Below, in pieces: positions 1 through 36,330 of a stretch of 64,000 bases of DNA. The position numbers and the translations under genes are program-made. Origin of the DNA: Candidatus Wallbacteria bacterium. GTDB lineage: Bacteria; Muiribacteriota; JAQTZZ01. The stretch is from contig JAQTZZ010000012.1 of NCBI GenBank assembly GCA_028687545.1, positions 24,315 through 88,314 on the forward strand. Direction: 5' to 3'. The notes under the pieces were generated by a model. The model had not been told where the DNA came from. It did not search any database and worked only from the letters and a program-made list of their open reading frames with translations. Each line of letters begins with the position of its first letter. Position 1 is the stretch's first letter.

Positions 1-1718
1 AGCCTGATCTGCAGATTCAGGCTGGGATGATCAGCGTAAAACACGGTCAAAGGCATCCTTGGCACAAAAAACGGTAATTGCCTGATCCCTCTATAAACAG
101 TCAGATGATAGGTATCGCCGCACGAAAGGAAAAGGTGGAAAGCAGCACCCCACCTTCTAACTATTTCATCGGGAAATCCTTCGCTCCAGTAAGTCAGCCC
201 CATTTCCTGTTGAAAGTTCAGGTTCAGACAGCATTCTCCGGTAGATTGGGACACATGATTACGGAAAACCTTAAACGCTCCCCTTACATGAGGCGTATAG
301 CAGGCATATACCTGCGAGATCCCAAATTTCTTTATCAGGAATTCCCTAGCTGCCAGATCCCGCTTCTCGCCTTCTCCGGCCAGTTGGCCGGCATCTCTCC
401 AGATCAGAGTAAGATCCTGATCACTGGACAATCTTTTCTCAAGCAGCACCCCGGCGTTCTCCGGGGTGTATTCAGGGGTTGTCAGGGGAGTGATTTCCGG
501 AGAAATATACATTTTCGCCGTCCCGAGCATGGCGAAAGGCGACTCCAGCAGTGGACCGGGTCTGTTTGAACGCGCTAGAAAATCCCTGACTTCGAGCAGG
601 CTCCGGTCTCGAACTGAAAACTGGCTCAGATCTCCCTGCCATTCAATCAGAAGCAGAACAGCCAGGCACAGGTAACGGACTTTGAGTGGCATCCTGCTCA
701 GGCTGACCGCAAGCAGCAGGATCAGTGCGGGAAGTGCGAACATCGCATGGCTTGGTTCATAGACTGCCGCTGAAAACAGTGCGCTCATCAGATGAGAAAA
801 GCCGAAGAGGAGGAGAAGTGGGAAAAAGAGATAAGCAGCCAGCAGCATGTATTTCCGCCTGATGTCGCCGATTCCCGCTCTGAAGCCATGCAAAAGCAGA
901 ATAATCATGATGATCAGCCCCCAGTAACCTGTCAGCTGGAAATGGCGACCTTCCAGCATGATGCTGAAATTATCCAGAAACTGCATGAAATTGGCAGGTT
1001 TCAGCCACCAGGCATGCAGCGATATCTGATAGGAAAAACCGGGATGGAAGGGCGAGGCTCTGGCACAGACAAGCACCGGAAGTATGCAAACCAGCACAGC
1101 TGCCTGCCAGGCCGCTAAAATTGAGAGCGAACGCAGATTCCGGTGTGTCAGCAGATAGGCTGCGGCCAGGAAGAGAAAAGGAAAAACAAAATAATAATGA
1201 CTGTAAAATCCAAGAACCGATGCCATCACGAGCAGCCAGAAATCCCTTGATTTGCCGGTTTTGTCGAATTTCATCCAGGCCCAGAAGAAAATCACTGAGA
1301 CAAGATACAGCAGAGTGTACATCCTGGCTTCCTGGGAATGGAACATATGCATCGGATTGATCGCGAGTAGGAGAGCCGAAATCACTCCTGCTTCCAATCC
1401 GAACAAGGCGCAGGCAGCCAGGTATGTGACATACACACCGGCTACCCCGAGCAGGGCGGAAGGCAGCCTCAGCGCAAATTCCTGGCTGAGCGGGAGCGAC
1501 AGGAAAGGCCTCAGCATCAGATAATAAAGGGGAGGGTGCACATCGTCTCTAAGGATTTTGACGATGGTCCCGCCAATGCTCCGTCCGGTGTTCCAGTCCC
1601 GGCCGAAAAGTTCATCCCAGAAAAGGCAGAATCCACCCAGATCATGAATTCTGATCCATAATGAAAACAACAGGATAATGTAAATATATTTAGATTTGTG
1701 CTGCCCGATCCTGATCAT
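1..1718 (-). CDS. GT-C family membrane glycosyltransferase (ArnT/PMT_2-like, GT39/GT83 type), 3'-truncated by the window edge
   Basis: Open minus-strand frame runs from the ATG at 1718 past position 1. It is missing from the ORF track because it has no in-window stop. The translation MIRIGQHKSKY...DDVHPPLYYLMLRPF...INPMHMFHSQEARMY...SVLGFYSHYYFVF aligns residue-for-residue with module 1 of the 1765-aa ORF at 8074..13371 (EDTHPPTYYLLERPF...NPFHFYHSQEARMY). The C-terminal soluble part (DLAAREFLIKKFGISQVYACYTPHVRGAFKVF) matches that ORF's module tails. Its ATG overlaps the stop of the upstream ORF in an ATGA arrangement. Confidence 0.6.
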   Translation of the reverse strand, partial: MIRIGQHKSKYIYIILLFSLWIRIHDLGGFCLFWDELFGRDWNTGRSIGGTIVKILRDDVHPPLYYLMLRPFLSLPLSQEFALRLPSALLGVAGVYVTYLAACALFGLEAGVISALLLAINPMHMFHSQEARMYTLLYLVSVIFFWAWMKFDKTGKSRDFWLLVMASVLGFYSHYYFVFPFLFLAAAYLLTHRNLRSLSILAAWQAAVLVCILPVLVCARASPFHPGFSYQISLHAWWLKPANFMQFLDNFSIMLEGRHFQLTGYWGLIIMIILLLHGFRAGIGDIRRKYMLLAAYLFFPLLLLFGFSHLMSALFSAAVYEPSHAMFALPALILLLAVSLSRMPLKVRYLCLAVLLLIEWQGDLSQFSVRDRSLLEVRDFLARSNRPGPLLESPFAMLGTAKMYISPEITPLTTPEYTPENAGVLLEKRLSSDQDLTLIWRDAGQLAGEGEKRDLAAREFLIKKFGISQVYACYTPHVRGAFKVFRNHVSQSTGECCLNLNFQQEMGLTYWSEGFPDEIVRRWGAAFHLFLSCGDTYHLTVYRGIRQLPFFVPRMPLTVFYADHPSLNLQIR

Positions 1719-2125
1719 GCTGCCAGCAGGAAAGTGAATTTAAGGAGCTTTTCCCGGGTCAGGTACTCGATTTTCATTTCCCTGGACATTTTACTAGCCA
1801 TGAAAAGCCCGTATCCGTCAACCGGAAGCTCTTCGATTCTGGGTGGCAGGAGCTTGATTTCAGAATACTCCTGGTCAATGTAGGTTACAATCAGCTGAAG
1901 CTTATCCGCAAAAAGGCTGACTTCATATCTGAAAAGGCTTTCAGCGGGAGAGACGCTGTGCCTGAGAAAATTGGTGAACATTTCATTGAGGATAAAAGTA
2001 AGGTCATTCAGGCGCGAATGGCTGATTCCATCCCCTGATAAAGCCTTCTGCAGATCCTCTCTGAGGATGGAGATGAATTCGACCTTCTTCGGATAGGAAA
2101 AATCGATCTTCCTATTTTCCTTCAT
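1715..2125 (-). CDS. small ATP-binding protein, anti-sigma-factor-like HATPase (RsbW/SpoIIAB type) candidate
   Basis: 136-aa ORF with an N-box-like LNEMFTNFLRHS and a G-box-like VDGYGLFMASKM. It overlaps the yvcK stop by 14 nt and the downstream GT-C start by 4 nt (ATGA). Confidence 0.4.
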   Translation of the reverse strand: MKENRKIDFSYPKKVEFISILREDLQKALSGDGISHSRLNDLTFILNEMFTNFLRHSVSPAESLFRYEVSLFADKLQLIVTYIDQEYSEIKLLPPRIEELPVDGYGLFMASKMSREMKIEYLTREKLLKFTFLLAA

Positions 2126-3371
2126 AGATCCTGTTAACCACCAGGTTGATAATCAGCCGGGCCAGCTTCTTGAAATTATGCCTTAAATAATCCGACTCCT
2201 CCATCAATTCGTCCAGGACAATGTCGGTGTCGAGCCTCGCCAGCTGGTCCCTGTCGACCACAACCGGATACGACTCCTTGAGAGCATATCTGGTGAGCGA
2301 TTCTTCGGATCCCCGCTGGGAATTGATGATGCAATAATCCAGCTTCACTTTAGGCAGATACTCCAGAATAGTCCTGATGTGATCGGAAGCCGTGAAACCG
2401 CTCGTCTCATGTGGCTGAGTCATGATGTTGCAGATGTAAATCTTGAGGGCCGCGCTTTCAGACAGCACAGCCCGGATTTCCGGTATCAGCAGATTCGGGA
2501 TCACGCTGGTGAACAGGCTGCCGGGTCCGAATATGATGCAGTCAGCCTCACTGATGGCCTGGATCACTTTATGATTGACGGCTGTTCCAGGGGGATCCAG
2601 AAAGACCCGCTTGATCTCCTTGCCCTGGGTGATGCCGATTTCGGATTCCCCTGCAGCGATGCTGCCGTTTTTCAATTCTGCCATCAGTGTGTGCGATGAA
2701 CTCATCGCAGGCAGTATTGTACCTTTGATCGCCAGGATTTTGCTGGATTCCTCCACTGCCCGTTCGAAATCTCCGGTGACATTCGTCAGCGCGGCAATGA
2801 AGAGATTTCCGAAACTATGCCCTGAAAGTTCTCCGCTGCCCTCGAATCTGTATTTGAAAAGTTCAGCCATCAGGGTTTCCTCGTTGGCCAGGCTTACAAG
2901 ACAGTTTCTGATGTCGCCTGGAGGCAGGATATGCAGTTCCGCCCTGATGCGGCCTGAACTCCCTCCATCATCCATCACGGTCACTACAGCGGTTACATTC
3001 CGCTCATCGTAGAATCTGGAATAGCGTTTGATTCCACGCAGAAGGGTCGACAATCCCGTTCCGCCGCCGATTACCACTATTTTGGGAGCGATTTCGAAAT
3101 GTCTGGGTGGAAAGAATTTGGCAGCCTCTTTGCTGTCGAATCCCCTCAGCAACTCAAAAATATACCGGATCACCCTGTAATAAGAATAACCGAGCAGGCC
3201 ACAGGCAGGAGTGAAGAAAAGCAGGAAAAAAAACAGCGAGAGTTTCTGCAGACCAAGAAAAACAATCTCCACCGTAATCAGGGCTGAAGACAGTATCAGG
3301 ATAATCAGCCATCTGCGCAGTTCAATGTCCGGCAGCAGGAACCGGAATTTTTCAAACAGTTTTTTACCCAT
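2112..3371 (-). CDS. yvcK: YvcK/GlmR family protein (UPF0052, CofD-like) with an N-terminal transmembrane extension
   Basis: KIVVIGGGTGLSTLLRGIK glycine-rich loop, VMDDGGSSGRIR and the following conserved YvcK blocks. The first roughly 90 aa are hydrophobic (LIILILSSALITVEIVFLGL...FFFLLFFTPACGLLGY). Confidence 0.8.
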   Translation of the reverse strand: MGKKLFEKFRFLLPDIELRRWLIILILSSALITVEIVFLGLQKLSLFFFLLFFTPACGLLGYSYYRVIRYIFELLRGFDSKEAAKFFPPRHFEIAPKIVVIGGGTGLSTLLRGIKRYSRFYDERNVTAVVTVMDDGGSSGRIRAELHILPPGDIRNCLVSLANEETLMAELFKYRFEGSGELSGHSFGNLFIAALTNVTGDFERAVEESSKILAIKGTILPAMSSSHTLMAELKNGSIAAGESEIGITQGKEIKRVFLDPPGTAVNHKVIQAISEADCIIFGPGSLFTSVIPNLLIPEIRAVLSESAALKIYICNIMTQPHETSGFTASDHIRTILEYLPKVKLDYCIINSQRGSEESLTRYALKESYPVVVDRDQLARLDTDIVLDELMEESDYLRHNFKKLARLIINLVVNRIYEGK

Positions 3372-4302
3372 TGCCTTCTCCAGAGGAAGAACCAGGCAGA
3401 AATTCCTGAAGCTTTCTTACCAGGGCATGCGGTTTCTTGACAATCAACTGTTTCACCAGCGCGTTCAAGTACTCGGAGAGAATTCCGATGAAGAAAAAAA
3501 CAAATGAAAATCCGATCATTTCTATGATGATCTCTGAGGGATATCCCGGCGGAGTGCTGTTCAGAAATATTTTTTGATAACAGATCCACAGGGAATATCC
3601 GACCGCGAAAATGAAAAAAGCAAAGGCCCAGACAAAAGAAAGACGCACTATGTTTGGAAAAGCCAGCAGATAGGTTGCTGTAAAAACATCCAGCAGCCTG
3701 GTAAAATCCATTTTACTGTTGCCTGAAATCCGCTCTCTGATCTTCACTCTCACGGATCTTGACCTGGACGAGATCCCGGGTAACGCTCCCTTGAGGGAAA
3801 AAATCGGGCTTAAGTTATAGCGCTCAAGGGACTGCTTGAGGATCCCGGACCGCGCAACCGCAAAATCGCTGATGTTCTTCTCATAACCCTTTACCCTGGT
3901 AAGAAAAGAGAACAGTCTGAAGAGCAGGTTCCAGATCGAGAAATATTCTTCTTTCAGGACATGTACTATGTCATCCCCTGTTTCGGTGAGAGAATTTTTC
4001 AAGCACAGCATGTCTTCAAAAGAAAACTGCTGATCAATGTCCATCAGGGCGGTGAACTCACATTCGGCATGCGAAAGACCAATCAGTGTAGCCCTGTCTT
4101 TGCCCACATTGTTCTGGAGAGTGAGCACCTTGATTTTAAGACCTGTTTCGGATGCAAGAGCCTGCATATCAGGCAGTTCCCCTGGCGAACCATCGTCCAC
4201 CAGGATGATTTCTCCAATCTCACTCTTGAATCTGGCTGCTTCCCTGACGAAAAGAGTGGTCGTCTCGCCTTCATTGAAAACGCAAACCACTATGGATATC
4301 AA
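3364..4302 (-). CDS. GT2 polyprenyl-phosphate sugar synthase (Dpm1/GtrB/ArnC-like)
   Basis: ISIVVCVFNEGE...ILVDDGSPG motifs with two C-terminal TM helices. The ORF track starts at the ATG at 4338, which lies in the centre of a perfect palindrome. The in-frame TTG at 4302, 7 nt after a GGAGGG, is the likelier start. Confidence 0.8.
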   Translation of the reverse strand: MISIVVCVFNEGETTTLFVREAARFKSEIGEIILVDDGSPGELPDMQALASETGLKIKVLTLQNNVGKDRATLIGLSHAECEFTALMDIDQQFSFEDMLCLKNSLTETGDDIVHVLKEEYFSIWNLLFRLFSFLTRVKGYEKNISDFAVARSGILKQSLERYNLSPIFSLKGALPGISSRSRSVRVKIRERISGNSKMDFTRLLDVFTATYLLAFPNIVRLSFVWAFAFFIFAVGYSLWICYQKIFLNSTPPGYPSEIIIEMIGFSFVFFFIGILSEYLNALVKQLIVKKPHALVRKLQEFLPGSSSGEGNG

Positions 4303-4316
4303 AAAAATCCCTCCGG

Positions 4317-4351
4317 AATAAAAGTAGAGACGCGCCATGGCGCGTCTCTAC
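4317..4351 (-). terminator. intrinsic terminator of the cyclophilin gene (perfect 28-bp palindrome plus T-tract on the minus strand)
   Basis: GTAGAGACGCGCCATGGCGCGTCTCTAC at 4324..4351 is a perfect inverted repeat. On the minus strand it is followed by TTTTATT at 4317..4323. Confidence 0.5.
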
Positions 4352-4477
4352 AATGGATTTCAAAACAGATTCCCCTGAGCTTCAACAAAGCACCGGGTAA
4401 GTTTTTCCCGCATGGAAACGCTTCGGGGATAGGCAACTGTAATAAAATTCTCACTGCGTTCGAATTTTATACAGTTG

Positions 4478-5353
4478 CTAATATTTTAACTTTCCGGAGA
4501 CAGTCTTTGGAATATAATCATGTGCTCTCTTGTAGATTATCTCCAGCTTATTCATCTTATCGCCCTGGACGATTTTGTTGACCACATCTTGTCCCAGCAG
4601 CACGCAACCGAATGCTGTATACTGCCCATCAAGATGGGGAACCACAGTATGGGTAATGAAGAACTGTGAACCGTTGGAATTAGGGTCGCTAGTCCTGGCC
4701 ATGGAGAGTACTCCTTCTTCATGCTTCTTGTCTGAGATTTCAAGCCCGAACTCATATCCAGGACCGCCTGAGCCGTTGCCATCAGGATCGCCGCCCTGGA
4801 TCACAAAATTCTTGACTACCCTGTGGAATTTAAGACCATTGTAAAACTGGTGGTCGATCAGGTAGATAAAGGAAGCCACAGTGTTCGGTGCATCATCTTC
4901 ATACAGAGCGGCATAGATATCACCCTTGTCAGTGCTGATCTTGACTACCGGCCAGTCTTTGCTGATGGCTGTTCTGGCGCGGTCAGCCTTAAAATCGCCG
5001 GCAATGCCTTTATCGATCGTGGCGATGGCTTCGGATGTGCTCCTCTTGGCAATCATTCCCCAGATGTCCATTGTTACCTCCCCGGTATTCGCTATTGCTT
5101 CTTGATTGGATTCGGCAGGTTCTTTCACCGTTCCGGATGCAGCGGCTTCAGCAGTGACAGCCGTTTCAGCGGTGACAGCTTTCACTTCCCCGGTCGAAGC
5201 CACTTCGGCAGTGGTCTTCACTTCTCCCGTTGCCGCCGCTTCCTTGGTGGACCCAGGCGTGATCTGACAAACTCCGCCGACGCAGTTGGTCCCTCCATCA
5301 GCGAAAACGCAAACAGTCAGCAGCAGCATCAGCATTGCGATCAATCTAGTCAT
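4478..5353 (-). CDS. ppiB: secreted cyclophilin-type peptidyl-prolyl cis-trans isomerase with a repetitive N-terminal linker
   Basis: Signal peptide MTRLIAMLMLLLTVCVFA and TGEVK-type repeats, then cyclophilin blocks HRVVKNFVIQGGDP, GVLSMARTSDPNSNGSQFFIT and TVVPHLDGQYTAFGCV. A GGAGG RBS lies upstream. Confidence 0.85.
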   Translation of the reverse strand: MTRLIAMLMLLLTVCVFADGGTNCVGGVCQITPGSTKEAAATGEVKTTAEVASTGEVKAVTAETAVTAEAAASGTVKEPAESNQEAIANTGEVTMDIWGMIAKRSTSEAIATIDKGIAGDFKADRARTAISKDWPVVKISTDKGDIYAALYEDDAPNTVASFIYLIDHQFYNGLKFHRVVKNFVIQGGDPDGNGSGGPGYEFGLEISDKKHEEGVLSMARTSDPNSNGSQFFITHTVVPHLDGQYTAFGCVLLGQDVVNKIVQGDKMNKLEIIYKRAHDYIPKTVSGKLKY

Positions 5354-5426
5354 GTTTTCCTCCTTGGTAAATTATTTGTCCAACCTATTCCTGCTGTGGT
5401 AATAGGTCAATCTCGATCTCCTGACT

Positions 5427-5837
5427 TCAGACAATCTCTTTCAGCCTTTTCTCCAACAGGCCCACGTATTTACTTTTCGGGTATGTTTTCAGGAATTCCC
5501 TGATTAATGATGCGGCTTCGGAATACTGTTTTTTCATGTCGCGGCAGACGATCAGACGGAACAGAGAAATCTCCCTGTAATCACTCCCTCCCTTATCCGT
5601 AATCTTCTGATAAAGTTCAGCTGCGTGAAGATAATCATCCTGCTTTTCATACAGGGCACCCTGAAGATAGAGGTATTCGTCTGCTTCCGATTTGTATAAC
5701 CGATCTGTGAGGATTTCGAAGGCTTCCTGATAATTTCCGAGTTTGAGCAGACTGAGGACCTGTTCGACTGAGTCGACAGACACAGCCTGGATAAAGGAGG
5801 CAGCGCTGAAAAAAGCAAGCAGTAATATTTTCTTCAT
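5427..5837 (-). CDS. secreted TPR-repeat protein
   Basis: Signal peptide MKKILLLAFFSAASFIQA followed by TPR-like helices (YQEAFEIL..YLQGALYEKQDDYLHAAELYQKI). Confidence 0.5.
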   Translation of the reverse strand: MKKILLLAFFSAASFIQAVSVDSVEQVLSLLKLGNYQEAFEILTDRLYKSEADEYLYLQGALYEKQDDYLHAAELYQKITDKGGSDYREISLFRLIVCRDMKKQYSEAASLIREFLKTYPKSKYVGLLEKRLKEIV

Positions 5838-5974
5838 GAAATACCGGCATCATTTTAACACAACTTCCTTTTGGAAGCTATCCCGGAATCCGGCACCCGA
5901 TTTTTACTGAAGAAATGTTTGCCAAACCGGCTGAGATCAAATAAAATATGGTCAATTCAGTCAAGGAGATCCAC

Positions 5975-7042: not shown

Positions 7043-7080
7043 ACTGATTAACTTGATTTAAAAGACTGGATCACGGCAAT

Positions 7081-7111
7081 AAAAAAAGCTCCCTTTCAGG
7101 AGCTTTTTTTT
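7081..7111. terminator. bidirectional rho-independent terminator
   Basis: A7, then the GCTCC-CTTTCA-GGAGC hairpin, then T8. It sits between the convergent M42 peptidase and flp-pilin genes. Confidence 0.7.
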
Positions 7112-7133
7112 ACTTTTCCGTAATTAGCTGACA

Positions 7134-7297
7134 GATGTGTTGGCAGTGCTCAGTTTGGTTTTAATCGTGTCGAAAATGTCACCGATCGATGAGCCGGTAG
7201 CGGTCAGAGCTGCGATGGCCACGATGGCGATCAGGCCGAGGATCAGTCCGTATTCGACCATTCCCTGTCCAGATTCCTCTCTGAAAAATCTTGTCAT
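7134..7297 (-). CDS. flp: Flp/Fap family type IVb pilin subunit, 54 aa, below the ORF-track length cutoff
   Basis: Minus-strand translation MTRFFREESGQGMVEYGLILGLIAIVAIAALTATGSSIGDIFDTIKTKLSTANTSVS shows the canonical Flp G/xxxxEY processing motif and hydrophobic core. The RBS AGGAGGCGC lies 3 nt upstream and a terminator lies downstream. Confidence 0.75.
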
Positions 7298-7516
7298 GTT
7301 GCGCCTCCTGTTAGAATTATTCTAAAAGATACATAACAATTCCTGTGCCAAAGAACCAAAATGGCTTGAACAACATGTTTTTCCTTCGAAAATAGGCTTT
7401 AGACCACCAATTTTGCTGAAAATAATGTTCACTTTAGTATACATAATTCAAGGGGACTTAGATCAGAGCGGGGAACTGGTGTTCACATTTATATACATCA
7501 GATGCTGTAAAAAAGC

Positions 7517-7771
7517 TCAACTCTCCTGAAGCTCCACCGCCTCCCTGCTGATTTCAGAGGCGAGTCCGAGCAGCAGTTTTTCTTCTGCTTCGAGTTGGTT
7601 CAATTCAGTCCGCTGCTCGTTCAATTTATACTCCAGTCCATCCGGATCGCCGGAAAGCGCTTCCTCGGTCAGGGAAACCAATTCCTTCATCAACAGATCC
7701 AGCCTGACTTCGAGCTCCCGCTGTTCGTTTCTAAGGTTTTTCAGATATGTGATCTTTTCGTAAAGATTCAT
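7517..7771 (-). CDS. hypothetical coiled-coil protein
   Basis: Heptad-rich sequence (LKNLRNEQRELEVRLDLLMKEL..). Coding status is uncertain. Confidence 0.3.
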   Translation of the reverse strand: MNLYEKITYLKNLRNEQRELEVRLDLLMKELVSLTEEALSGDPDGLEYKLNEQRTELNQLEAEEKLLLGLASEISREAVELQES

Positions 7772-8042
7772 CGAGCCCTGCAATTTTCTCTCCCCATCCG
7801 TTGATGATCTTCTTCAGGCATTTGACCCGTTCCCTCTTGATTTCCACCATAAACTCAAGATTTTCCAGTGTTGTCCTCAGATTCTCGGCGATCGGCTTAT
7901 GTCTGGCGCCGGTATGGTTCAGGCTCAGTATTCTCTCTTCCAGATCTGAGATTTCCTTTTTTTTGGACAAGTTGTCAGCTTCTATCAACTGGATGGACTC
8001 GTCAAGCTTTTGAAGTGAGGCGAACAATCCTTTGCTCATGAT
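7731..8042 (-). CDS. hypothetical coiled-coil protein
   Basis: The probable start is MIMSKGLFASLQKL. The track's longer N-terminus overlaps the stop of the giant GT-C ORF. Coding status is uncertain. Confidence 0.3.
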   Translation of the reverse strand: MMSKGLFASLQKLDESIQLIEADNLSKKKEISDLEERILSLNHTGARHKPIAENLRTTLENLEFMVEIKRERVKCLKKIINGWGEKIAGLDESLRKDHISEKP

Positions 8043-8073
8043 CATTGATAATTTTAGCATCAATAGCCTGATT

Positions 8074-11000
8074 TTACAATGCCTGACCCTCAGCACGCTT
8101 TTCCTGCAACTTCCAGGCAAGCTGACTCACCAGTAAGAATGCCGGGCAGCAGAGCGCTGAAATCCAGCAGAGGTTGAGCAGCATTATGTAAAACAGATTG
8201 AAATAAAAAGGCGGGCTGATTTCTATTTGATAATTACCAGGGGAAAGAATCAGGAGCGGAGGAAGAGAGCAGATGGAAAAGTCAAAAGGCCAATGTCTGA
8301 AATCGCGGCACAATTCAAGATTGTAGATTTCGCCGCAGGTCAGGGATAATTCATACTTTCTGCCAAATGGCAGGATTTTTCTCTGAGAAGGTTCATTTTC
8401 TTTGTAAATTTCCAGGCTGAGTTTATCCGGAAAAGTCAGTTCCAGGGCGGCAGTCCCATCCTCCCTGCCCGAGGATTTATCATACAAAATCAGGGACCCT
8501 GGTGCTGAATTCGGAGATAAGAAGGCTCTCACCGGCTGCAGATTGTATTTCTCCGTAAACCTGCTCACCTTCTGATTATCCTGCTCGAAATACTTATCTC
8601 CTGAATGGGATAAATTGCGGACGATTAGGTGATACCTGTCCTGGAGTCCGTTTTCCCATGTTTCCCTGCATTGAGATAGTGCCAGAGCTTTATGAGTCAG
8701 AATTTCCCTCCCTGCTGCCAGATCCCTGTCTGGAGAAATCAGAAATTTATCTGGTTTTTCACAGTCAACTTTTAAACATTGCTTAAGCTGAAAATAACTT
8801 CTGTCTTTATTAGCTAGTGTATTGATGTCCTGCTGAAGAAATATCAGGACTAAGGAGAAAAGCCAGATCCTCCTGGCCATGGCGTTCACACCTGAAACAG
8901 GGTGGCACAGAAGCGCGAGAAAAGGTGGAACAGCCAGCAATGTATCTGCAGTAAATAAAGTGATGAAAAGGTAATACAGCATGGTTCGGCCGGCCTTTGG
9001 CACCATGCGGTATCCCAGGAGCAGCGTCAGAAGCCACATGATCTGAACACTGGTTTCATCTCCGCAGAAGTAAAAACCTCCCAGCAGTTTCTGAAACTGT
9101 CCGACCAATTCAGAATGCCAGGAAACTTGAATTCCAGATTCAATCAATATCAGCAGCCGGTAAAGGATGAACAGTGAAATCCAGGCGGTCTGGAACAATC
9201 CAGGTTTTCTTTCCCATTTGCCTATGAACAGAAGATACAGTATTCCGCCGCTTATCAGCGCCATCCATAACAGATCCGGTTCAAAAAGACCGAGCAGGGC
9301 TGCAGCAGCTGTCAGCAAGGCTTTCCCAAGCGTGAGTGGAAGTACCGCACTCCAGAAAATCAGGGACAGATCGAAGTTGATGATTCTGATCAGATCCTGC
9401 TGGGCATACAGGAAATACAGAGGAATGAGGGGCAGCAGCATTAAAGACAGCCGGGCAGTCCCAGCTCCTGAAACGGATTTCACCAGCCGGTAAGTAAGGA
9501 ATCCTCCGGCAATAGAGGCCAGGATCGAGCAGATCCTGAGCGATCCGTAATCCAGACCAAGTGCTTTGCTCAGGCTGATTTCAGGGTACTCAGGACAGGC
9601 TCCATTGATGTCCACCAGCAGGATGGCAGCTGCGTAAAGAGTAAAAATGGTCAGCGGATGCCTGCAAACAGCTGCGACAGCTCCAGGAGCGGACAGGCAG
9701 CTCCGTAATTCTGCAGCCTGGATTTTCAGTCTGGAGATCAGAGTAAAGGCTCTTTCCGCAGCATAGAAGTAAATCAGTTGAACTGGCGGCTTCAGATAAA
9801 TTTTAAGCTTCCTGCAGGGCAGACAGTTGCCTAGTGCGATTAATAGCAGGACAAACCAGGCGGCATTGATCATCAATATCCACCATTTTCTGAAAATCAG
9901 AGGCAGCCGCAAGTCGAACTCCAGATTGCCCCCACCAGTGGAAACGACCGGAGGAAGTTCCCAGGATGCGTAAAAAAACGGGCAATAGTCGAGCGCTCGG
10001 CTCATCCTGAAATGATTCACTGTTCCTGTAGACAGGGGAACTTTAAAATTGTAGTTCCAGAGCTGTACCTGCGGGTTTCGCCAGTTTTCCTCGGAATAAT
10101 ATTCCAGGATTGTTGAGCAGTCGAATTTGAGTTGCAGCTGCGATTCAGTTTCGCTGACTGTTGATGTGCGTTGCCTGAATGCGACTAAAGAAAATGGGGC
10201 TGAACCAGGAGTATTAAATGCAAAAGCAGGTACCAGGTTGTTTTCCCTTATCAAGCATCGAGTGATCTCTGCTTCCCTCTCGCCGATGCTGCTTACTTGC
10301 TCCGGCGAATTTTCAATAAAAAGTACATTTTCGTGGCCTGGAATCAGTTTCTGATTCAACCTCTCCCTGGCCAGATCCATAGACATCTCTTTTTTTTCAA
10401 GCAGAGGGATCAGGCGGCACATCAAGCGCTGTGCAACCTGGCTGCTTCGCTCAGACGGGGAATACAGAAGATTCGTCCCTTCCCGCAAGTCTTTATCGAG
10501 ATACTGTTTGAGCTGCGACAGGCTGTGGTCGCATTTAAGCAGTGTATCCAGGTCACCCTGCAGGAAGATCAGCATGATTGCCAGGGAAAACAACGCAGCG
10601 AACGGATTCGGAAGCTTTCCTGCAATGTATCCAAACAGGATCAGGATCAGGGGAGCCAGGAAGCCGAACTCAGTGGCTTCTGGATTTACTGCCGGGCCGT
10701 TCGCAAACGGATGGAACATAAAAAGCAGGGTCAGGCTGAGCAGGATTGCCGAACAGATGGACAGGAATTTTCTCAATTCTCCGCATCTGCCGGCAGTGAA
10801 TACTCCTGAAATCAAAGTTATCCCGACCAGCATCGCCGCATACCTGAACTGCACTGAAAAAAGAAATCCATTGGTAAAGCTATAGATAAAGTCATGCAGC
10901 GCCGGGATCTGGTTCCAGTATTGGGTACAGAGAAGATCAAAGCTCTTTGGCCGGAATTTCTGAAGCCCACTCAAAAAATAAATTATCGAGGGGGAAGAGA

Positions 11001-13362
11001 AGATCAGCACTGCAGCCTGCCATTTGAGAAAATGATCCCTGTTCAACTCTTTCTTGTGTATTACTGAAAACAGGATGCTGAAGAGGTAAATCCCCAGAAA
11101 GCCGCCCTGGGAAAAAGTAAACCCGGCCAGGCTCACGCAGGCCAGCAGTTCCCATGAGCAGCCCCCGCGCAGGAATCTCAAAAAAAGAAAAAGGTAGAAC
11201 GCGGTCAGAAAGACAGTTACTGAAGCCTCGGGAAATTGGAGATTAAGGCAGAATAAAAATGGGGAAAGCGAGGCAAAGAGTGCTGAATAGAGTCCTGTTT
11301 TCACTCCAAACAGCTCTTTCCCCAGCAGGTAGATACAATAGATTCCCAGCAGTCCTACTGTCTTCGCGGAAGTCGCGGATATGCCCAGTGAATGCTCGCT
11401 GAAGAGCAAAACAGTAAATGCGAAAACCAGGGTAAAGAAAAGAGGAGGGTTCAGGTGCTCAGACTCCATTTTCTGGCGAAATTCAGATGCAATGCCGGAA
11501 AACCATCCCAGAAGCAATTCCCGGTAATTTCTCAGGTCAGACTGCAGGAGCCCCAGAATCGAGGAAAAAAGCAGAAAGCACCAGGCCAGATCCAGGAGCA
11601 GTATCCAGGGTGTTCTGAAATAAAAAGGTATATTCAGATTTCTGACCTCTTCTCCACGTTTCAGAAACAACAATGGCGGGAGGCAGAGTGAAGGATTGAA
11701 AAGCTGGGAATGGACATTTTCCGACCAGGTGTGCAACCGTCTCCAGGCGTCCAGATGATAGCATTTTCCGGTAGACAAGGTCAGAGAGGCTGTGCCGTTA
11801 TCGTCGGCAATCGTCTGGATTGCCTCAGGTTCGTCTTCAGAGTAAAGATTGTACCCCATGGGCAGCCTGTTTTTCAGTTTCAATGAATATATCTCCCCTG
11901 TAGAGCAAGGTTGGGAGTTGCCATACACAGTAATCGCCTGATAAGGACTCTGGGGAGAAAAAAATACGGCCTGAGGATTCAATGAATATTTCTTTCTGAG
12001 ATAGTCTCTGGCAATCAGGTCCTGTGGCTGGCTTTCTCCTAGGCGCTGCCCGATTTCCCTGAAGACCAGGAATACATTCCCAGTTCCGGTCTGAGCATCG
12101 ATCAAAGTTTCAATGCTGCCTGCAGACAGGCCTTTATACGAAGGCCAGGCCAGGGACCGGGAGCCGGCAATGTATGAGCCGGCCACTTCGCTCAGCGCGA
12201 AAGGGGAGGTGAAAACAGTTCCGCCCAAGCCTTTCAGATAATCCCTGATCTGAAACAGGCTCCTGTCCAGGTTGTCCTGATAGCCGAGAATGCTCTGGAA
12301 AAATATCAGGAGCAGCGCTCCGAGAGCCGGGATCCTGACCATCCCCGGCAGCAGTGTGAAAAACCTGGCCATGAAGATCAGGAGAGCCGGCAGTGCTATG
12401 ATCCCATGCCTCATCCTGTAAACAGCCACTCCTGAAAAATGGAAAAAAAGTTCGGAAGTGAAAAAAAGGAGGAGCAGAGGAATCAATAAATAACCCAGCA
12501 GGAACAGCTCCCCTGAATTCTGCCCGCGATATACCCTGAGCAGCATCGTAGTCAGCACAATCAGCAGAAACAGGGTAATCGCCCACCAGGAATAATAATA
12601 AAAATATCCTTCCAGGAAATGCCTGATGATCTCGATGAATTCGAAGAAATGAGTCGGAGGAAGCCAGCCTGCGCAGGATTTCAGCAAAGTCCCGTACCTG
12701 GAGTTGAGCGGGGAGACGCTTCCGAAAATCAGGACAGGGCTGAGCCCGGCAAAGACAGATAACATCCAGACGAAAAGGCTGCGAAGTCCTGCCTTCTGGT
12801 TCAGGGTGGCCAAAAAATGCAGGGCTGCGAAAGCGAACACAAAGATAAAGTAATAGTCGCTGTAAAATCCGGCAAGCGAGGAAACAACCAGTACCGCCAG
12901 AGACTTTCTGCCCGGATTTTCCCGGAAACGCAGATAATACAGGATGAACTGCGCGCTCGCCCAGTAAAGCATCGAATACATCCGGGCTTCCTGTGAATGA
13001 TAGAAATGGAAAGGATTGAAGGCGCAGAGCAGCGCAGCGAACAGACCTGCGTTCAGTCCGAACATGAAAGAGCCGAGCCTGAAAGTATAATAAATTCCGG
13101 CTACTCCGAAGAAGACAGAAACAAGTCTCAGGCAGGTTTCCAGTGAAAACGGCAGCTTAAGGAAAGGTCTTTCCAGTAAATAATATGTGGGAGGGTGTGT
13201 ATCTTCCTGCAGCACCCGGGAAACAAGGCTCAGAGCTGAACATTCCCGGTTGATCTTTAAACCATAGTGTTCGTCCCAGTCCAGACAGAAATCGGACAGG
13301 CGATAAAGGCGCAGCGCTAGTCCCAGGACCAGAATCAGCAGGATCAGATGCTTTTTTTTCAT
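8074..13362 (-). CDS. roughly 1760-aa fusion of three tandem GT-C (ArnT/PMT_2-like) glycosyltransferase modules
   Basis: Each module has a polytopic membrane domain followed by a roughly 200-aa soluble domain and a C-terminal TM helix. The three soluble domains align with each other and with the 1..1718 paralog. Module 1 carries the HPPTYY and HFYHSQEARMY motifs. The start was moved to MKKKHLILLIL. Confidence 0.7.
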   Translation of the reverse strand: MKKKHLILLILVLGLALRLYRLSDFCLDWDEHYGLKINRECSALSLVSRVLQEDTHPPTYYLLERPFLKLPFSLETCLRLVSVFFGVAGIYYTFRLGSFMFGLNAGLFAALLCAFNPFHFYHSQEARMYSMLYWASAQFILYYLRFRENPGRKSLAVLVVSSLAGFYSDYYFIFVFAFAALHFLATLNQKAGLRSLFVWMLSVFAGLSPVLIFGSVSPLNSRYGTLLKSCAGWLPPTHFFEFIEIIRHFLEGYFYYYSWWAITLFLLIVLTTMLLRVYRGQNSGELFLLGYLLIPLLLLFFTSELFFHFSGVAVYRMRHGIIALPALLIFMARFFTLLPGMVRIPALGALLLIFFQSILGYQDNLDRSLFQIRDYLKGLGGTVFTSPFALSEVAGSYIAGSRSLAWPSYKGLSAGSIETLIDAQTGTGNVFLVFREIGQRLGESQPQDLIARDYLRKKYSLNPQAVFFSPQSPYQAITVYGNSQPCSTGEIYSLKLKNRLPMGYNLYSEDEPEAIQTIADDNGTASLTLSTGKCYHLDAWRRLHTWSENVHSQLFNPSLCLPPLLFLKRGEEVRNLNIPFYFRTPWILLLDLAWCFLLFSSILGLLQSDLRNYRELLLGWFSGIASEFRQKMESEHLNPPLFFTLVFAFTVLLFSEHSLGISATSAKTVGLLGIYCIYLLGKELFGVKTGLYSALFASLSPFLFCLNLQFPEASVTVFLTAFYLFLFLRFLRGGCSWELLACVSLAGFTFSQGGFLGIYLFSILFSVIHKKELNRDHFLKWQAAVLIFSSPSIIYFLSGLQKFRPKSFDLLCTQYWNQIPALHDFIYSFTNGFLFSVQFRYAAMLVGITLISGVFTAGRCGELRKFLSICSAILLSLTLLFMFHPFANGPAVNPEATEFGFLAPLILILFGYIAGKLPNPFAALFSLAIMLIFLQGDLDTLLKCDHSLSQLKQYLDKDLREGTNLLYSPSERSSQVAQRLMCRLIPLLEKKEMSMDLARERLNQKLIPGHENVLFIENSPEQVSSIGEREAEITRCLIRENNLVPAFAFNTPGSAPFSLVAFRQRTSTVSETESQLQLKFDCSTILEYYSEENWRNPQVQLWNYNFKVPLSTGTVNHFRMSRALDYCPFFYASWELPPVVSTGGGNLEFDLRLPLIFRKWWILMINAAWFVLLLIALGNCLPCRKLKIYLKPPVQLIYFYAAERAFTLISRLKIQAAELRSCLSAPGAVAAVCRHPLTIFTLYAAAILLVDINGACPEYPEISLSKALGLDYGSLRICSILASIAGGFLTYRLVKSVSGAGTARLSLMLLPLIPLYFLYAQQDLIRIINFDLSLIFWSAVLPLTLGKALLTAAAALLGLFEPDLLWMALISGGILYLLFIGKWERKPGLFQTAWISLFILYRLLILIESGIQVSWHSELVGQFQKLLGGFYFCGDETSVQIMWLLTLLLGYRMVPKAGRTMLYYLFITLFTADTLLAVPPFLALLCHPVSGVNAMARRIWLFSLVLIFLQQDINTLANKDRSYFQLKQCLKVDCEKPDKFLISPDRDLAAGREILTHKALALSQCRETWENGLQDRYHLIVRNLSHSGDKYFEQDNQKVSRFTEKYNLQPVRAFLSPNSAPGSLILYDKSSGREDGTAALELTFPDKLSLEIYKENEPSQRKILPFGRKYELSLTCGEIYNLELCRDFRHWPFDFSICSLPPLLILSPGNYQIEISPPFYFNLFYIMLLNLCWISALCCPAFLLVSQLAWKLQEKRAEGQAL

Positions 13363-13375
13363 TATAAACACGGAA

Positions 13376-14092
13376 TCACCGTCCGCACACGGAATTCAGA
13401 AGTCCCGGAATTTCTCTGCAGGCGCGGTTGTAGTCCTCCTGAACCCCGATGTCGATGAAATAGCCTTGAGAAACAAATCCGCCGATTTTCAGTTGATCCG
13501 GATTTTTCTGCAGCAGCTCCGTTTCCAGCGAAAATTTCTCAGGCAGCTTTAATCCCTTTAATGATTTCCTGGACATCACATAAACACCGGCATTGATCAA
13601 CCCAGACTGCCGGGATTTTTTTTCAGAAAAAGTTTCCACCATTTTACCCTTGGTCAGGGTAATGCAGCCGTATCTCTCAAAATTCTGCAGCTCACGCAGG
13701 GCAATGGTGATATCACAGCCGTTCTCGACATGCCATTGCAGAAGTTTCCGGGGGTCAAGCTCCAGAAAAGTGTCGCCATTAAAAACAGGAAAACAATCGC
13801 CCTGCATCAGGGGGAGAGCATGCAGGACAGCACCACCGGTACCCAGTGGTGTTTCCTCCTGAGAGTATTCGATGGTTGTCCCGTCAAGCCTGGATCCGAA
13901 AAAGTCACTGATCCGGTCCGCCATGAATCCAGTGGAGATCACCAGTCTCTGGAAGCCACTGACAGAAAGATATTTAAGCAGATACCAGAGAAATGGTTTC
14001 CCCTCAATGGGAAACATAGGTTTCGGAAGCCCCATTGCAGAGCTCTGCAGCCTGGTTCCCATCCCTCCTGCCAAGATCAGACCTTCCATCAT
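13376..14092 (-). CDS. hddC: sugar-1-phosphate nucleotidyltransferase (HddC/mannose-1-P guanylyltransferase-like)
   Basis: LILAGGMGTRL signature, a GTGGA block and PVFNGDTF. Its stop lies 4 nt before the start of the giant GT-C ORF. Confidence 0.65.
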   Translation of the reverse strand: MMEGLILAGGMGTRLQSSAMGLPKPMFPIEGKPFLWYLLKYLSVSGFQRLVISTGFMADRISDFFGSRLDGTTIEYSQEETPLGTGGAVLHALPLMQGDCFPVFNGDTFLELDPRKLLQWHVENGCDITIALRELQNFERYGCITLTKGKMVETFSEKKSRQSGLINAGVYVMSRKSLKGLKLPEKFSLETELLQKNPDQLKIGGFVSQGYFIDIGVQEDYNRACREIPGLLNSVCGR

Positions 14093-14096
14093 CGGG

Positions 14097-15116
14097 TCAG
14101 CTCGCCCAGGTTTCCAGGCCCTTGTCGACGAATTGGAATCTTCTGAACTCCCCTCCGAATTCCTTCAATCTTTCTATTACCGGATGCCGCTTGTTCGCTG
14201 GACAATAAAATATCATGAAACCGCCCCCTCCTGCCCCGGTAAGCTTTCCACCGGTAGCTCCTGCCTTGATCGCTGCATCGTAAATCTCATCGATCATGGG
14301 ATTCGAGATCCCTTCAGCCAGATCTTTCTTATATTTCCAGCCGAAGTTCAGCAGTTCTCCGATCTCATCCAGCTTTCCTTTCAGGATGGCTTCTTTCATC
14401 AGCACTGCCTGCTCCTTGAGCTTGTGCATGGCCTGGACCGCCTTCTCTTCATTTGCAGTCACACTTCTGACCTGGGCTTCGATGATCCTGGAGGACAGCC
14501 TGCTCGTCCCGGTGTAATACAGCACAAGGTTATGCTGGAGTTCATTCAGATAGTCGTCCTTGACTCTCAATGGATTCACCAGTACCCTGTCATTACCGGA
14601 AAATTCAATGAAATTGAATCCGCCAAACGCGGCGGAATAATGGTCCTGCTTCCCGCCGGCCATCAGCATGTCGAGGCGCTCTATCTCGTATGCAAGATGG
14701 GCAATCTCATATTTTCCGAGCGGCAGTTTATGCCATTCTGCGAACGCGCCGACAATCGCCACCACCAGGGTGGATGAAGACCCCAGCCCTGAACCGGGGG
14801 GAGAATCGACGCAGGTCGAAAGTTCAAACGACTGCTTTCCAAGGGAATATCTTTCCACCAGCCTGTTATAAACAGCTTTGATCAAATCCAGCTTTCCATT
14901 CAATTCCAGTTTTTCCAAGGCAGGGAATCTGCTTTTTTCTCCCCTGTCTACTGCATTCAGGGAAATCGTCCCGACCGCCGGTTCGATTGAGGCATAGGCA
15001 TACAGACTGATCGTGGTATTGAGGACAGTTCCCCCGAAAATGTCGGAATAGGGATGCACATCAGTACCGCCACCGGCGAGACCGAGACGAAGCGGAGCCT
15101 TGCTTCTGAAAATCAC
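14097..15116 (-). CDS. hddA: GHMP-family sugar kinase (HddA-like D,D-heptose 7-phosphate kinase candidate)
   Basis: APLRLGLAGGGTD N-terminus and the GHMP motif PPGSGLGSSSTLVVAIVGA. It is adjacent to the nucleotidyltransferase gene. Confidence 0.65.
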   Translation of the reverse strand: MIFRSKAPLRLGLAGGGTDVHPYSDIFGGTVLNTTISLYAYASIEPAVGTISLNAVDRGEKSRFPALEKLELNGKLDLIKAVYNRLVERYSLGKQSFELSTCVDSPPGSGLGSSSTLVVAIVGAFAEWHKLPLGKYEIAHLAYEIERLDMLMAGGKQDHYSAAFGGFNFIEFSGNDRVLVNPLRVKDDYLNELQHNLVLYYTGTSRLSSRIIEAQVRSVTANEEKAVQAMHKLKEQAVLMKEAILKGKLDEIGELLNFGWKYKKDLAEGISNPMIDEIYDAAIKAGATGGKLTGAGGGGFMIFYCPANKRHPVIERLKEFGGEFRRFQFVDKGLETWAS

Positions 15117-15124
15117 TTCACCCC

Positions 15125-15835
15125 CTAAAGTCTTCCAAATGCCTTGAGCAGTATTGTTGCCTTTAAGCAGCGGAACAGTTTGAAAAAGTCAAGTTTGGAT
15201 TTCCCTCCACCTCTGTCGTGGAAATCATACGGCAATTCCATGATCCTGTATTTACTGCGCAGGAAATGATAAAGCAGTTCTTCAGTGATCTCCGGACCAA
15301 GGGAATTAAGATTCGGAAGAATACCGGCGATCACCTCTCTCCGCAAGGCAGCGAACCCGCTGGTGGGATCTTTGATGTCCGTGGAAAAGAGCACTCTGAC
15401 CCAGCCGCTGGAAGCAAAGCTTAACAGCTTTCTCAACAGGCCGCTCCGCAGGTCTCTGCCGTTTCCACTGAAACGGGAAGCGAGCACCACATGATATTTA
15501 TCCAGATAAGAAAGCATCCTGACAATTGTCTCAGGAGGATGGGAAAGATCGCCGTCCATGTAGGCAAGGTAAGGAAAATCCCAGTGGTCCAGGGCGTATC
15601 TGTAGCCTTCGATTGCAGCTGTCCCCCTCCCCCGCCTCTGCTTTCTGACGAGCAGGTGAAGATTGGAGAATCGATCCTGCATTGCAATCACCCGGTCGCC
15701 TGTACCGTCTGGAGAATCATCGTCCACCACCAGCAGAATTTCATCAGGCAGCGCATTGAAGTATTCAGTCACCAGCTGCCCGATGTTTTCCGCTTCATTA
15801 AATGTGAAAACCAGTGTCACCAGCTTTCCGCTCAC
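15125..15835 (-). CDS. GT2 polyprenyl-phosphate sugar synthase (Dpm1-like), soluble catalytic type
   Basis: LVTLVFTFNEAENI..LLVVDDDSPDGTGD..YLAYMDGDLSHPPE are GT-A DxD/DAD motifs typical of dolichyl- or polyprenyl-phosphate mannose/glucose synthases. Confidence 0.8.
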   Translation of the reverse strand: MSGKLVTLVFTFNEAENIGQLVTEYFNALPDEILLVVDDDSPDGTGDRVIAMQDRFSNLHLLVRKQRRGRGTAAIEGYRYALDHWDFPYLAYMDGDLSHPPETIVRMLSYLDKYHVVLASRFSGNGRDLRSGLLRKLLSFASSGWVRVLFSTDIKDPTSGFAALRREVIAGILPNLNSLGPEITEELLYHFLRSKYRIMELPYDFHDRGGGKSKLDFFKLFRCLKATILLKAFGRL

Positions 15836-18013: not shown

Positions 18014-18166
18014 GAACCAGCCTTATTGTGGAATCTCTAAAACTTTCTGAAATTCTATCAATTTTTGGGATTTTGTCAAAGAAAGGTCCTTTGATCTGTA
18101 AATAAAAAACCGTAGCTGATGCAAAATCCTCTGAAAGGATTTTACAACACTACGGTTTTTAATATT

Positions 18167-25100: not shown

Positions 25101-25174
25101 AGAAATAGGCATACTGTAATAGTATATAAGTTACTGAAGTCTTTTTCGGCCAATGTATGGATTATGGAGGGAAT

Positions 25175-36189: not shown

Positions 36190-36330
36190 CACATCAACAT
36201 TATGACCGAGATTCCGCTGCAGAGCAAATGAAGTGCGCAAAGTGCTTGAATTTTGAACGAATTTTATAATCCCGCAATATCTGATATAATCATATCCAGT
36301 AAAAGCAGGACTAAATACAGGGAGCTGACC

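Follow-up and report, generated by a model that had tools for sequence, protein, structure and literature searches.

A Candidatus Wallbacteria locus that may link GDP-heptose enzymes and a membrane-anchored YvcK/GlmR protein to a rare family of PMT-like GT-C glycosyltransferases

At the left end of a 64-kb stretch of a metagenome-assembled genome (MAG) from the uncultured phylum Candidatus Wallbacteria, two strings of minus-strand genes encode glycosyltransferases of family 2 (GT2) and of the GT-C fold, raising the question of which sugars these enzymes move across the membrane and onto which acceptor. This stretch is referred to below as the window, and all positions are given in its coordinates. 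A preliminary description had listed two Dpm1-like GT2 enzymes, a sugar kinase, a sugar-1-phosphate nucleotidyltransferase, four GT-C modules and a membrane-anchored YvcK protein, and had proposed that a nucleotide-diphosphate sugar is loaded onto polyprenyl phosphate by GT2 and transferred in the periplasm by GT-C. Every gene that it listed is present at or very near the position it gave, and the proposed route is compatible with all family assignments reported here and with the tight operon spacing. The 1765-residue protein, both GT2 enzymes, YvcK and a small HATPase protein are deposited as Candidatus Wallbacteria on a single 88-kb NCBI contig. We read the locus as two parallel pathways leading from a polyprenyl-phosphate sugar to GT-C and sharing one rare PMT-like family, the sugar probably being a heptose in one string (string B) and possibly N-acetylglucosamine (GlcNAc) in the other (string A). 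We assign this reading a probability of about one half.

String B is composed, in this order, of a soluble GT2, HddA, HddC and a 1765-residue protein containing three GT-C modules, with gaps of 8, 4 and 4 nucleotides (nt) between neighboring genes. String A runs from a GT2 with two C-terminal transmembrane (TM) helices to YvcK, an RsbW-like protein and a GT-C, and its neighbors overlap by 8, 14 and 4 nt. The start/stop overlaps that had been ascribed to both strings are real in string A and have to be replaced by short gaps in string B. This spacing of 4-8 nt suggests translational coupling of the GT2, HddA, HddC and GT-C genes. Protein families were searched for in the genes of the locus and in the larger open reading frames (ORFs) of the window.

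The kinase and the nucleotidyltransferase of string B indicate which sugar is activated. The kinase (14097..15116), a member of the GHMP superfamily, scores 379 bits with the NCBIfam HddA model and aligns over residues 2-337 with a Bacteroides structure (PDB 3k85, E = 8e-108), Burkholderia WcbL (4usk, 8e-105) and Campylobacter jejuni HddA (4n3o, 4e-90). In WcbL, R13 and D163 have been named as catalytic (PMC4691232); both are conserved here, in the stretches APLRLGL and GGKQDHY (APLRLGL and GGRQDQY in WcbL). Fucokinase/Fkp, NahK/GlmU, galactokinase and mevalonate kinase were considered for this gene and rejected: Fkp reaches 138 bits, and E = 2e-27 for its fucokinase domain, compared with 379 bits and E = 1e-108 for HddA. 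For the nucleotidyltransferase (13376..14092), the best NCBIfam model is HddC (202 bits, the next model reaching 150) and the best structures are those of Yersinia HddC (6jq8/5xhw, E = 3e-44, the next structure at 4e-27), pointing to a D-glycero-alpha-D-manno-heptose-1-phosphate guanylyltransferase. By sequence, the pair can be assigned as HddA and HddC of the guanosine diphosphate (GDP)-D-glycero-alpha-D-manno-heptose pathway, and their product is therefore most likely GDP-D-glycero-alpha-D-manno-heptose. Among the subfamilies that the preliminary description had left open, HddA/HddC is thus the one that applies, and not Fkp or NahK/GlmU.

A comparison set of 80 genome loci (L002-L081), whose kinases are 59-69% identical to the one studied here, shows the usual surroundings of such genes. 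Most of these loci are from Bacteroidota and have GmhA and HddC adjoining the kinase. The string around the HddA homologs (80 of 80) comprises DUF4199 (52), an ArnC/GtrB-like membrane GT2 (55), a GT4 (60), GmhA (53) and HddC (55), and GmhB often comes after it, as in Chitinophaga fulva (L060, 7338-12841). In this phylum, the GDP-heptose pathway habitually adjoins a GT2 of the polyprenyl-phosphate type.

The enzyme expected to use the activated sugar is the soluble GT2 (15125..15835), a Dpm1/Ppm1-type protein devoid of TM segment. Its sole PDB match is the dolichyl-phosphate-mannose synthase (DPMS) of P. furiosus (5mlz, E = 8e-27), and thousands of proteins of ~235 residues, many of them named polyprenol monophosphomannose synthase, share 35-43% identity with it. 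In PfDPMS, D39 binds guanine, D89 and D91 form the DxD motif, H94 contacts the mannosyl O3, and R117, R131 and S135 are ligands of the lipid phosphate (PMC5526996). Equivalents of these residues are conserved in the soluble GT2 and invariant in 30 relatives. Because these contacts are conserved, the enzyme very probably moves a GDP-linked manno-type sugar onto polyprenyl phosphate. That this sugar would be a heptose is indicated by the genomic context, since the remaining soluble enzymes of its unit make GDP-heptose and string B encodes no Leloir glycosyltransferase besides the soluble GT2. With a polyprenyl-phosphate GT2 as the only glycosyltransferase beside HddA and HddC, and a GT-C after them, the operon implies a lipid-phosphate-heptose. 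For the nearest relatives of the soluble GT2 (36-43% identity), the gene immediately upstream is a GT9 (heptosyltransferase-family) gene in nine of the nine contexts with enough flanking sequence (L082, L084, L086, L093, L095, L096, L098, L099 and L100). These GT9 neighbors score only 74-86 bits with the models for lipopolysaccharide (LPS) heptosyltransferases I-III, and further downstream at L082 come a YfhO-type GT-C and a PMT_2-TPR protein.

The last gene of either string, as listed above, encodes a GT-C protein. As described preliminarily, there are four GT-C modules: three are contained in the triple ORF of string B (P0001, 8074..13371; 1765 residues, or 1762-1765 depending on the start codon) and the fourth is a separate gene which closes string A and is cut by the left edge of the window. 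This single-module protein (P0210, 1..1718) is 611 residues long, of which residues 1-572 lie in the window (tblastn, 100% identity over 572 residues); its start overlaps the preceding stop as ATGA, and NCBI names it a GT family 39 protein of Candidatus Wallbacteria. Comparison of a three-module profile with 1.84 billion cluster representatives retrieved four proteins at E < 1e-30, plus one fragment: P0001 and P0210 from this MAG, P0208 (611 residues) from another Wallbacteria MAG and P0209 (620 residues) from another lineage. More distant GT-C relatives are ordinary PMT_2 proteins of ~500 residues. The family is confined to Wallbacteria and this one other lineage.

In about 60 relatives, D33, E34, P61, R82, E128, R130 and Y132 (module 1 numbering) are near-invariant. 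All of them are retained in module 1 (residues 1-608, 11548..13371), P0210, P0208 and P0209, within the motifs F-x-L-x-WDE, D-x-HPP-x-YY, LRL-x-S and HSQEARMY, which read LDWDE, THPPTYY and HSQEARMYS in module 1 and FCLFWDE, DVHPPLYY and HSQEARMY in P0210. An AlphaFold model of module 1, computed with close relatives in the alignment, has a predicted local distance difference test score (pLDDT) of 92 and combines a GT-C_A membrane domain with an alpha/beta subdomain and an Ig-like beta-sandwich; in an AlphaFold2 model computed without close family members, the last 100 residues are unresolved. The closest structure to the model is Pmt4, and the fold of ArnT also matches well. No MIR domain was matched in the GT-C proteins. 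Module 1 ends with this periplasmic alpha/beta and beta-sandwich domain and then a terminal TM helix, which carries a W-x-L-L-x-N-x-x-W pattern in each family member. This helix returns the chain to the cytoplasm, so that a head-to-tail fusion of modules is topologically possible.

Modules 2 (residues 609-1184, 9820..11547) and 3 (residues 1185-1765, 8074..9819) are degenerate, the latter strongly. Both have lost the DE loop and SQEARMY; module 2 retains the periplasmic domain, and module 3 the periplasmic domain and the terminal TM helix. The three modules are pairwise 20-25% identical (E = 1e-12 to 1e-19). With a family hidden Markov model built without the Wallbacteria modules, module 1 scores 225 bits, module 2 scores 55 bits, its match beginning only at position 68, and module 3 scores -9.7. 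The membrane domains are 37-43% identical among the four motif-bearing copies and 20-23% identical between modules 2 or 3 and any other copy. For the periplasmic domains, the corresponding values are 24-32% and 17-25%, and that of module 3 is 23-25% identical to those of modules 1 and 2 (E = 1e-15 to 1e-19). Moreover, the ten columns which are invariant in all seven sequences are all found from the last TM helices on (module 1 positions 328-585). Sequence divergence in modules 2 and 3 is thus concentrated in the membrane domain, where it far exceeds that of the periplasmic domain. The helix equivalent to the one carrying HPP is strongly hydrophobic and uncharged in modules 2 and 3, with Kyte–Doolittle hydropathies of 1.95 and 1.65 versus 0.11 in module 1, and the loop preceding it is basic in module 3 (eight Lys and Arg versus two Asp and Glu). 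Because of this hydropathy and charge, the former catalytic loop of modules 2 and 3 is predicted to be cytoplasmic. We infer from the motif loss and the predicted topology that modules 2 and 3 are inactive, module 1 being the only part of the triple protein that still looks active. Of the four GT-C modules, two, module 1 and P0210, thus look catalytic.

The membrane GT2 of string A (3364..4338, or 3364..4302 from an internal start) belongs to PF00535, with TM helices at residues 235-253 and 270-288. It is of the GtrB/ArnC polyprenyl-phosphate type, matching GtrB (5ekp) and ArnC (9bhc/8vxh) full-length over residues 3-310 (E ~1e-10); with the ArnC equivalog model, it scores 40 bits and the soluble GT2 20 bits, for a cut-off of 529. 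The next gene (2112..3371) encodes a YvcK/GlmR-family protein (TIGR01826, 354 bits, cut-off 196; PDB 2hzb/2o2z, E = 2e-87) which keeps DDGGSSG and GPGSLxTSVxPNLL. Judged by eye on the alignment, its YvcK domain, which spans residues 97-408, shares ~50% identity with the B. halodurans protein. This domain is preceded by an N-terminal extension of 96 residues with TM helices (residues 16-54), which bears out the membrane anchoring noted in the preliminary description. Hence this protein, which sits beside GT2, RsbW-like and GT-C genes, is not a soluble protein in a yvcJ-glmR-whiA context. The RsbW-like protein (1715..2125, 136 residues) has a HATPase_c_2 domain (PF13581, 33.9 bits, cut-off 27.4). 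Its sequence contains the N-box (E-x-x-x-N-x-x-x-H) and reads DQEYS where the G1 box D-x-G-x-G is expected; such a protein may bind rather than phosphorylate.

It has been shown that Bacillus YvcK/GlmR binds uridine diphosphate (UDP)-GlcNAc (PMC7525490). In Listeria, D40, D41 and N198 of GlmR were mutated so as to abolish a uridyltransferase activity forming UDP-GlcNAc, and the loss of GlmR is relieved by blocking the pathway which decorates wall teichoic acid with GlcNAc (PMC10128056). The proposed catalytic stretches containing the positions mutated in Listeria, DDGGSSG and PNLL, are retained in the protein studied here. By analogy with Firmicutes, where YvcK/GlmR is a UDP-GlcNAc-binding protein and accessory uridyltransferase, GlcNAc is our best guess for the second sugar.

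The gene order of string A is found elsewhere. At L087, from the second Wallbacteria MAG, a GT2 represented by its C-terminus (34% identical to the membrane GT2) precedes YvcK (68%), a HATPase protein (38%) and P0208, in this order. In the other lineage (L088-L090), a TM-anchored YvcK (62%) is followed by a HATPase protein (37%) and P0209, stops and starts overlapping. The RsbW-like protein accompanies the anchored YvcK in three lineages, with 36-38% identity. Since the order recurs at these loci, anchored YvcK, the RsbW-like protein and GT-C form a conserved unit. The 1765-residue protein is a paralog of the GT-C of this triad, triplicated and placed behind heptose genes. Treating the two strings as one system, as the preliminary description had done, is supported by their GT-C genes being of one rare family and by the occurrence of the triad in two other lineages, the synteny in related genomes being one of the points it had raised.

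From these elements a mechanism can be sketched. The unit of string B would extend from 18013 or 15835 to 8074, perhaps to the pilin gene flp at 7124. HddA and HddC would make GDP-D-glycero-alpha-D-manno-heptose, GmhA and GmhB necessarily being encoded elsewhere, and the soluble GT2 would load the manno-configured heptose on polyprenyl phosphate at the cytoplasmic face. The lipid-linked sugar would then be flipped, and module 1 would hand the sugar on to an acceptor outside the cytoplasm. As catalytically dead copies, modules 2 and 3 would owe their retention to their periplasmic domains, which might bind the acceptor or act as a scaffold. In string A (4338 to beyond position 1), the GtrB/ArnC-type GT2 would load a second sugar and P0210 would transfer it; the membrane-anchored YvcK/GlmR would supply or sense the UDP-sugar, with the RsbW-like protein as its partner. 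Step for step, string A may in this way mirror string B, from nucleotide-sugar provision or sensing (YvcK) through loading of the lipid (membrane GT2) to transfer (P0210).

Candidate acceptors are suggested by position and composition. The Flp pilin named in the preliminary description is real (7124..7297, minus strand, 57 residues; PF04964, 38.8 bits, cut-off 32.2). Its processing motif G/xxxxEY reads GQG-MVEYGL, in the stretch G/MVEYGLILGL, and its C-terminal tail, KLSTANTSVS, is rich in Ser and Thr. The window contains no other Flp motif, and no tad/cpa assembly family turned up among the scanned ORFs. The flp gene is the last on the strand of string B, 776 nt and two small ORFs away from the GT-C gene, and it stands directly before a strong hairpin resembling a bidirectional terminator (7081..7110, a 12-bp stem between A and T runs), which closes the minus-strand unit after flp and also the plus-strand gene of an M42 peptidase. 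Because it closes string B just before this hairpin, the pilin is, by position alone, a better-placed candidate than had been implied. In the literature, nothing relevant was found on glycosylation of Flp pilins, and the structure of the Caulobacter Tad pilus shows no glycan density. The two small overlapping ORFs (88 and 129 residues, 7517-8120, minus strand) between the triple GT-C gene and flp look coiled-coil-like and have no meaningful family match; gene callers predict both on a Logan contig (L001).

Between the two strings lie a plus-strand M42 aminopeptidase gene, a small TPR protein and a cyclophilin (4478..5353, minus strand; PF00160, E = 6e-44). The cyclophilin, also named in the preliminary description, is real and its N-terminus is hydrophobic and signal-peptide-like. 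Ahead of its isomerase domain, it has a Thr/Ala/Glu/Val-rich linker of ~70 residues in which TGEV(K) units recur. Linkers of this Thr-rich kind are typical targets of O-glycosylation, and the protein is a candidate acceptor only. The leading candidates would be the Flp pilin, secreted Ser/Thr-rich proteins and the LPS core. The fuller proposal, which we advance tentatively and at less than even odds, is that string B employs a new polyprenyl-phosphate-D-glycero-D-manno-heptose donor and one active and two pseudo-enzyme GT-C modules to heptosylate a surface target, Flp being the most concrete one, with YvcK/GlmR built into the sister pathway.

Several observations weigh against two such pathways, and against heptose in particular. 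A tblastn search with Chitinophaga and Persephonella queries gave no GmhA or GmhB in the window, and no flippase-type family was found among the scanned ORFs, apart from a distant EamA transporter. With these functions not in the window and two of the four GT-C modules lacking the invariant residues, the earlier label "complete-looking" was too strong. The kinase and the nucleotidyltransferase fall below the equivalog cut-offs of HddA (600 bits) and HddC (300 bits). The Chitinophaga fulva pair is also below them (414 and 235 bits), though it lies inside a complete HddA-GmhA-HddC-GmhB string, which makes the HddA cut-off strict rather than diagnostic here. In the soluble GT2, F177-K178 of PfDPMS, the gate and mannosyl contact, are replaced by P-E (P-x in relatives), and the residues that were checked are common to mannose and heptose and do not separate the two. 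HddA and HddC occur in none of 80 metagenome loci around related Ppm1-like GT2 genes, and a GT-C of the Wallbacteria family in none of the 80 HddA genome loci; since it is absent from these 160 related loci, the combination of HddA/HddC, Ppm1-like GT2 and GT-C has been seen only once. In the literature searched, no report of a polyprenyl-phosphate-heptose was found. As for the triple protein, modules 2 and 3 still have acidic residues in nearby loops, and both copies of its ORF, on the NCBI MAG contig and in Logan SRR22315507, are from one organism and maybe not independent.

How these points bear on the sugar is best seen against mannose. The soluble GT2 could be a polyprenyl-phosphate-mannose synthase feeding PMT-type (protein) mannosyltransferases, HddA and HddC serving cytoplasmic glycosyltransferases encoded elsewhere. 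Its identity to annotated polyprenol monophosphomannose synthases (35-43%) and the retention of all DPMS mannose-contacting residues that could be checked are in line with this, and all uses of GDP-heptose that we know of are by cytoplasmic Leloir enzymes. Yet no GDP-mannose gene turned up among the scanned ORFs, string B has no second glycosyltransferase, and its gaps suggest that GT2, HddA, HddC and GT-C are translationally coupled. The GT9 genes beside the nearest relatives of the soluble GT2 (9/9) and the polyprenyl-phosphate-type GT2 habitually found beside the Bacteroidota HddA/HddC cluster also argue for heptose, and we regard mannose as doubtful. A different issue is whether the acceptor is LPS, its lipid A or core being decorated in the periplasm, in an Arn-like or Rgt-like manner, with heptose and a second sugar. 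Wallbacteria have been counted as a diderm phylum (bioRxiv 10.1101/2021.05.31.446380). Heptose is a classic sugar of the LPS core, the membrane GT2 matches ArnC and GtrB equally well, and the GT9 neighbors of the soluble-GT2 relatives would fit too. This explanation has to contend with the lack of lipid A, core, ArnA/B/D and wzx/wzy families among the scanned ORFs, with a GT-C family whose distribution, limited to Wallbacteria and one other lineage, does not track LPS, and with the Flp pilin and the secreted protein with the Thr-rich linker being the only plausible substrates encoded nearby. We therefore hold it to be unlikely. The ArnC/ArnT pathway proper, which the preliminary description had set against its own proposal, was rejected, the ArnC scores of both GT2 enzymes (40 and 20 bits) being far under the cut-off of 529 and its partner genes not being among the scanned ORFs.

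The triple GT-C gene itself might be a decaying or mis-assembled tandem duplication, with modules 2 and 3 devoid of function. All invariant catalytic residues are gone from both modules, the protein has no counterpart (a single cluster in 1.84 billion representatives) and its two known copies trace to one organism. Against this, the reading frame stays open over 5.3 kb at 48% G+C, and the protein-level difference of 75-80% between the modules is too large for a collapsed assembly repeat. The all-copy invariant columns cluster from the last TM helices on, and the periplasmic domains of modules 2 and 3 (17-25% identity) diverge almost to the same extent as those of motif-bearing members (24-32%). 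Each module has also kept the terminal TM helix with its W-x-L-L-x-N-x-x-W pattern, needed for a consistent topology. Decay or mis-assembly is very improbable in our view.

Upstream of string B, a gene for a HEAT-repeat protein of 689 residues (15944..18013, minus strand; PF13646, one TM helix at 292-310) ends 108 nt before the soluble GT2, and the order is identical on the Logan contig L001; this gene may open the transcription unit of string B. The extracytoplasmic part of this protein, 370 residues long, has no family match. The best promoter match of the area lies upstream of this gene and of string B, on the minus strand (18079..18052): it is sigma-70-like, TTGACA-16-TAGAAT with a TG, and a consensus match only. 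Rfam and tRNA scans returned solely tRNA-Glu and tRNA-Met, upstream of string B.

Other proteins are encoded elsewhere in the window. A second HEAT-repeat protein (51889-55368, plus strand) is fused to TPR repeats. Three proteins have FGE-sulfatase (formylglycine-generating-enzyme-like) domains (35389-36240, minus; 36253-41637, plus; 45152-48340, minus), one of which, of 1794 residues, combines three such domains with four fibronectin type III domains. A radical SAM/SPASM protein of 756 residues fused to TPR-like repeats (31998-34268, plus) is followed by a HemN-like radical SAM protein (34305-35396, plus). Finally, there are a clostripain-like C11 peptidase (25157-26491, plus), a gingipain-like C25 peptidase with a propeptide (42941-44914, plus) and a Ser/Thr kinase with GAF and TPR parts (28807-30933, minus).

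What is new in this locus can be separated from what is known. GDP-heptose enzymes are coupled here to a Dpm1-type GT2 and a GT-C, a combination not present in the 160 related loci; one GT-C polypeptide has one intact and two degenerate modules, which is unique among the 1.84 billion representatives; a GT-C has a membrane-anchored YvcK and an RsbW-like protein as fixed partners; and the GT-C family itself, limited to Wallbacteria and one other lineage, is new. To our knowledge, all known bacterial heptosylation, of LPS core, capsules, S-layer glycans and autotransporters, starts from soluble ADP- or GDP-heptose in the cell. If the heptose assignment is true, polyprenyl-phosphate-heptose would be a new lipid-linked sugar and, with GT-C, a new route for heptose onto surface molecules. 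Lipid-linked heptose may even be widespread and overlooked, as HddA/HddC lie by an ArnC-like GT2 in Bacteroidota and a Ppm1-like GT2 by GT9 in several phyla. If mannose is the sugar, this is an ordinary PMT-type system, though a lineage-specific one. The triple protein would offer natural pseudo-enzyme modules in a membrane glycosyltransferase, which could reveal non-catalytic roles such as acceptor capture or oligomer mimicry. In addition, the conserved triad sets the debated YvcK/GlmR protein inside a glycosylation operon and may help to settle whether it is an enzyme or a sensor.

The overall logic is already known from Ppm1/Pmt, GtrB/GtrC, CsbB/YfhO and ArnC/ArnT. Actinobacterial Ppm1/Pmt and eukaryotic Dpm1/PMT (GT39) likewise combine a Dpm1-type GT2 acting on polyprenyl phosphate and a GDP-linked manno sugar with a PMT_2-domain GT-C whose first outer loop bears a DE motif, Pmt4 being the best structural match. 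In contrast to these systems, the operon of the window carries GDP-heptose enzymes instead of GDP-mannose ones, the periplasmic part of its GT-C is an alpha/beta and beta-sandwich unit with a terminal TM helix and not a MIR domain, one gene fuses three modules, two of them degenerate, and the second copy is tied to YvcK and an RsbW-like protein. The known GDP-heptose pathway (GmhA, HddA, GmhB and HddC, as in Burkholderia with WcbL, Campylobacter and Yersinia) shares the HddA and HddC sequences and catalytic residues. Here, however, GmhA and GmhB are not adjacent and the sole neighboring glycosyltransferase is a polyprenyl-phosphate GT2, followed by GT-C.

In the decoration of teichoic acid or O-antigen by GtrB/GtrC, CsbB/YfhO and GtcA, a GtrB-type membrane GT2 and a GT-C similarly put a single sugar outside the membrane, and in the Listeria decoration pathway GlmR (YvcK) is tied to the supply of UDP-GlcNAc (PMC10128056). 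The GT-C of the window differs in being PMT_2-like, not of the YfhO or GtrC type, and no GtrA/GtcA flippase is found in the scanned ORFs; in addition, YvcK is membrane-anchored here, inside the same operon, and followed by an RsbW-like protein. ArnC/ArnT shares the two-step logic, a membrane GT2 with which string A aligns full-length and the ArnT fold, but the scores in the window are far under the ArnC cut-off, ArnA, ArnB, ArnD and ArnE/F are not among the scanned ORFs, and the sugar-activating genes differ in kind. The proximity of a GT-C gene and a pilin gene has a precedent in TfpW of P. aeruginosa group IV, a GT-C arabinosyltransferase which uses a polyprenyl-phosphate sugar and is encoded beside the type IV pilin that it modifies (bioRxiv 10.1101/2020.04.19.049825). 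In the window, by contrast, the pilin is a candidate acceptor by position, it is a 57-residue Flp type lying 776 nt and two small ORFs away from the GT-C gene, and the sugar is different.

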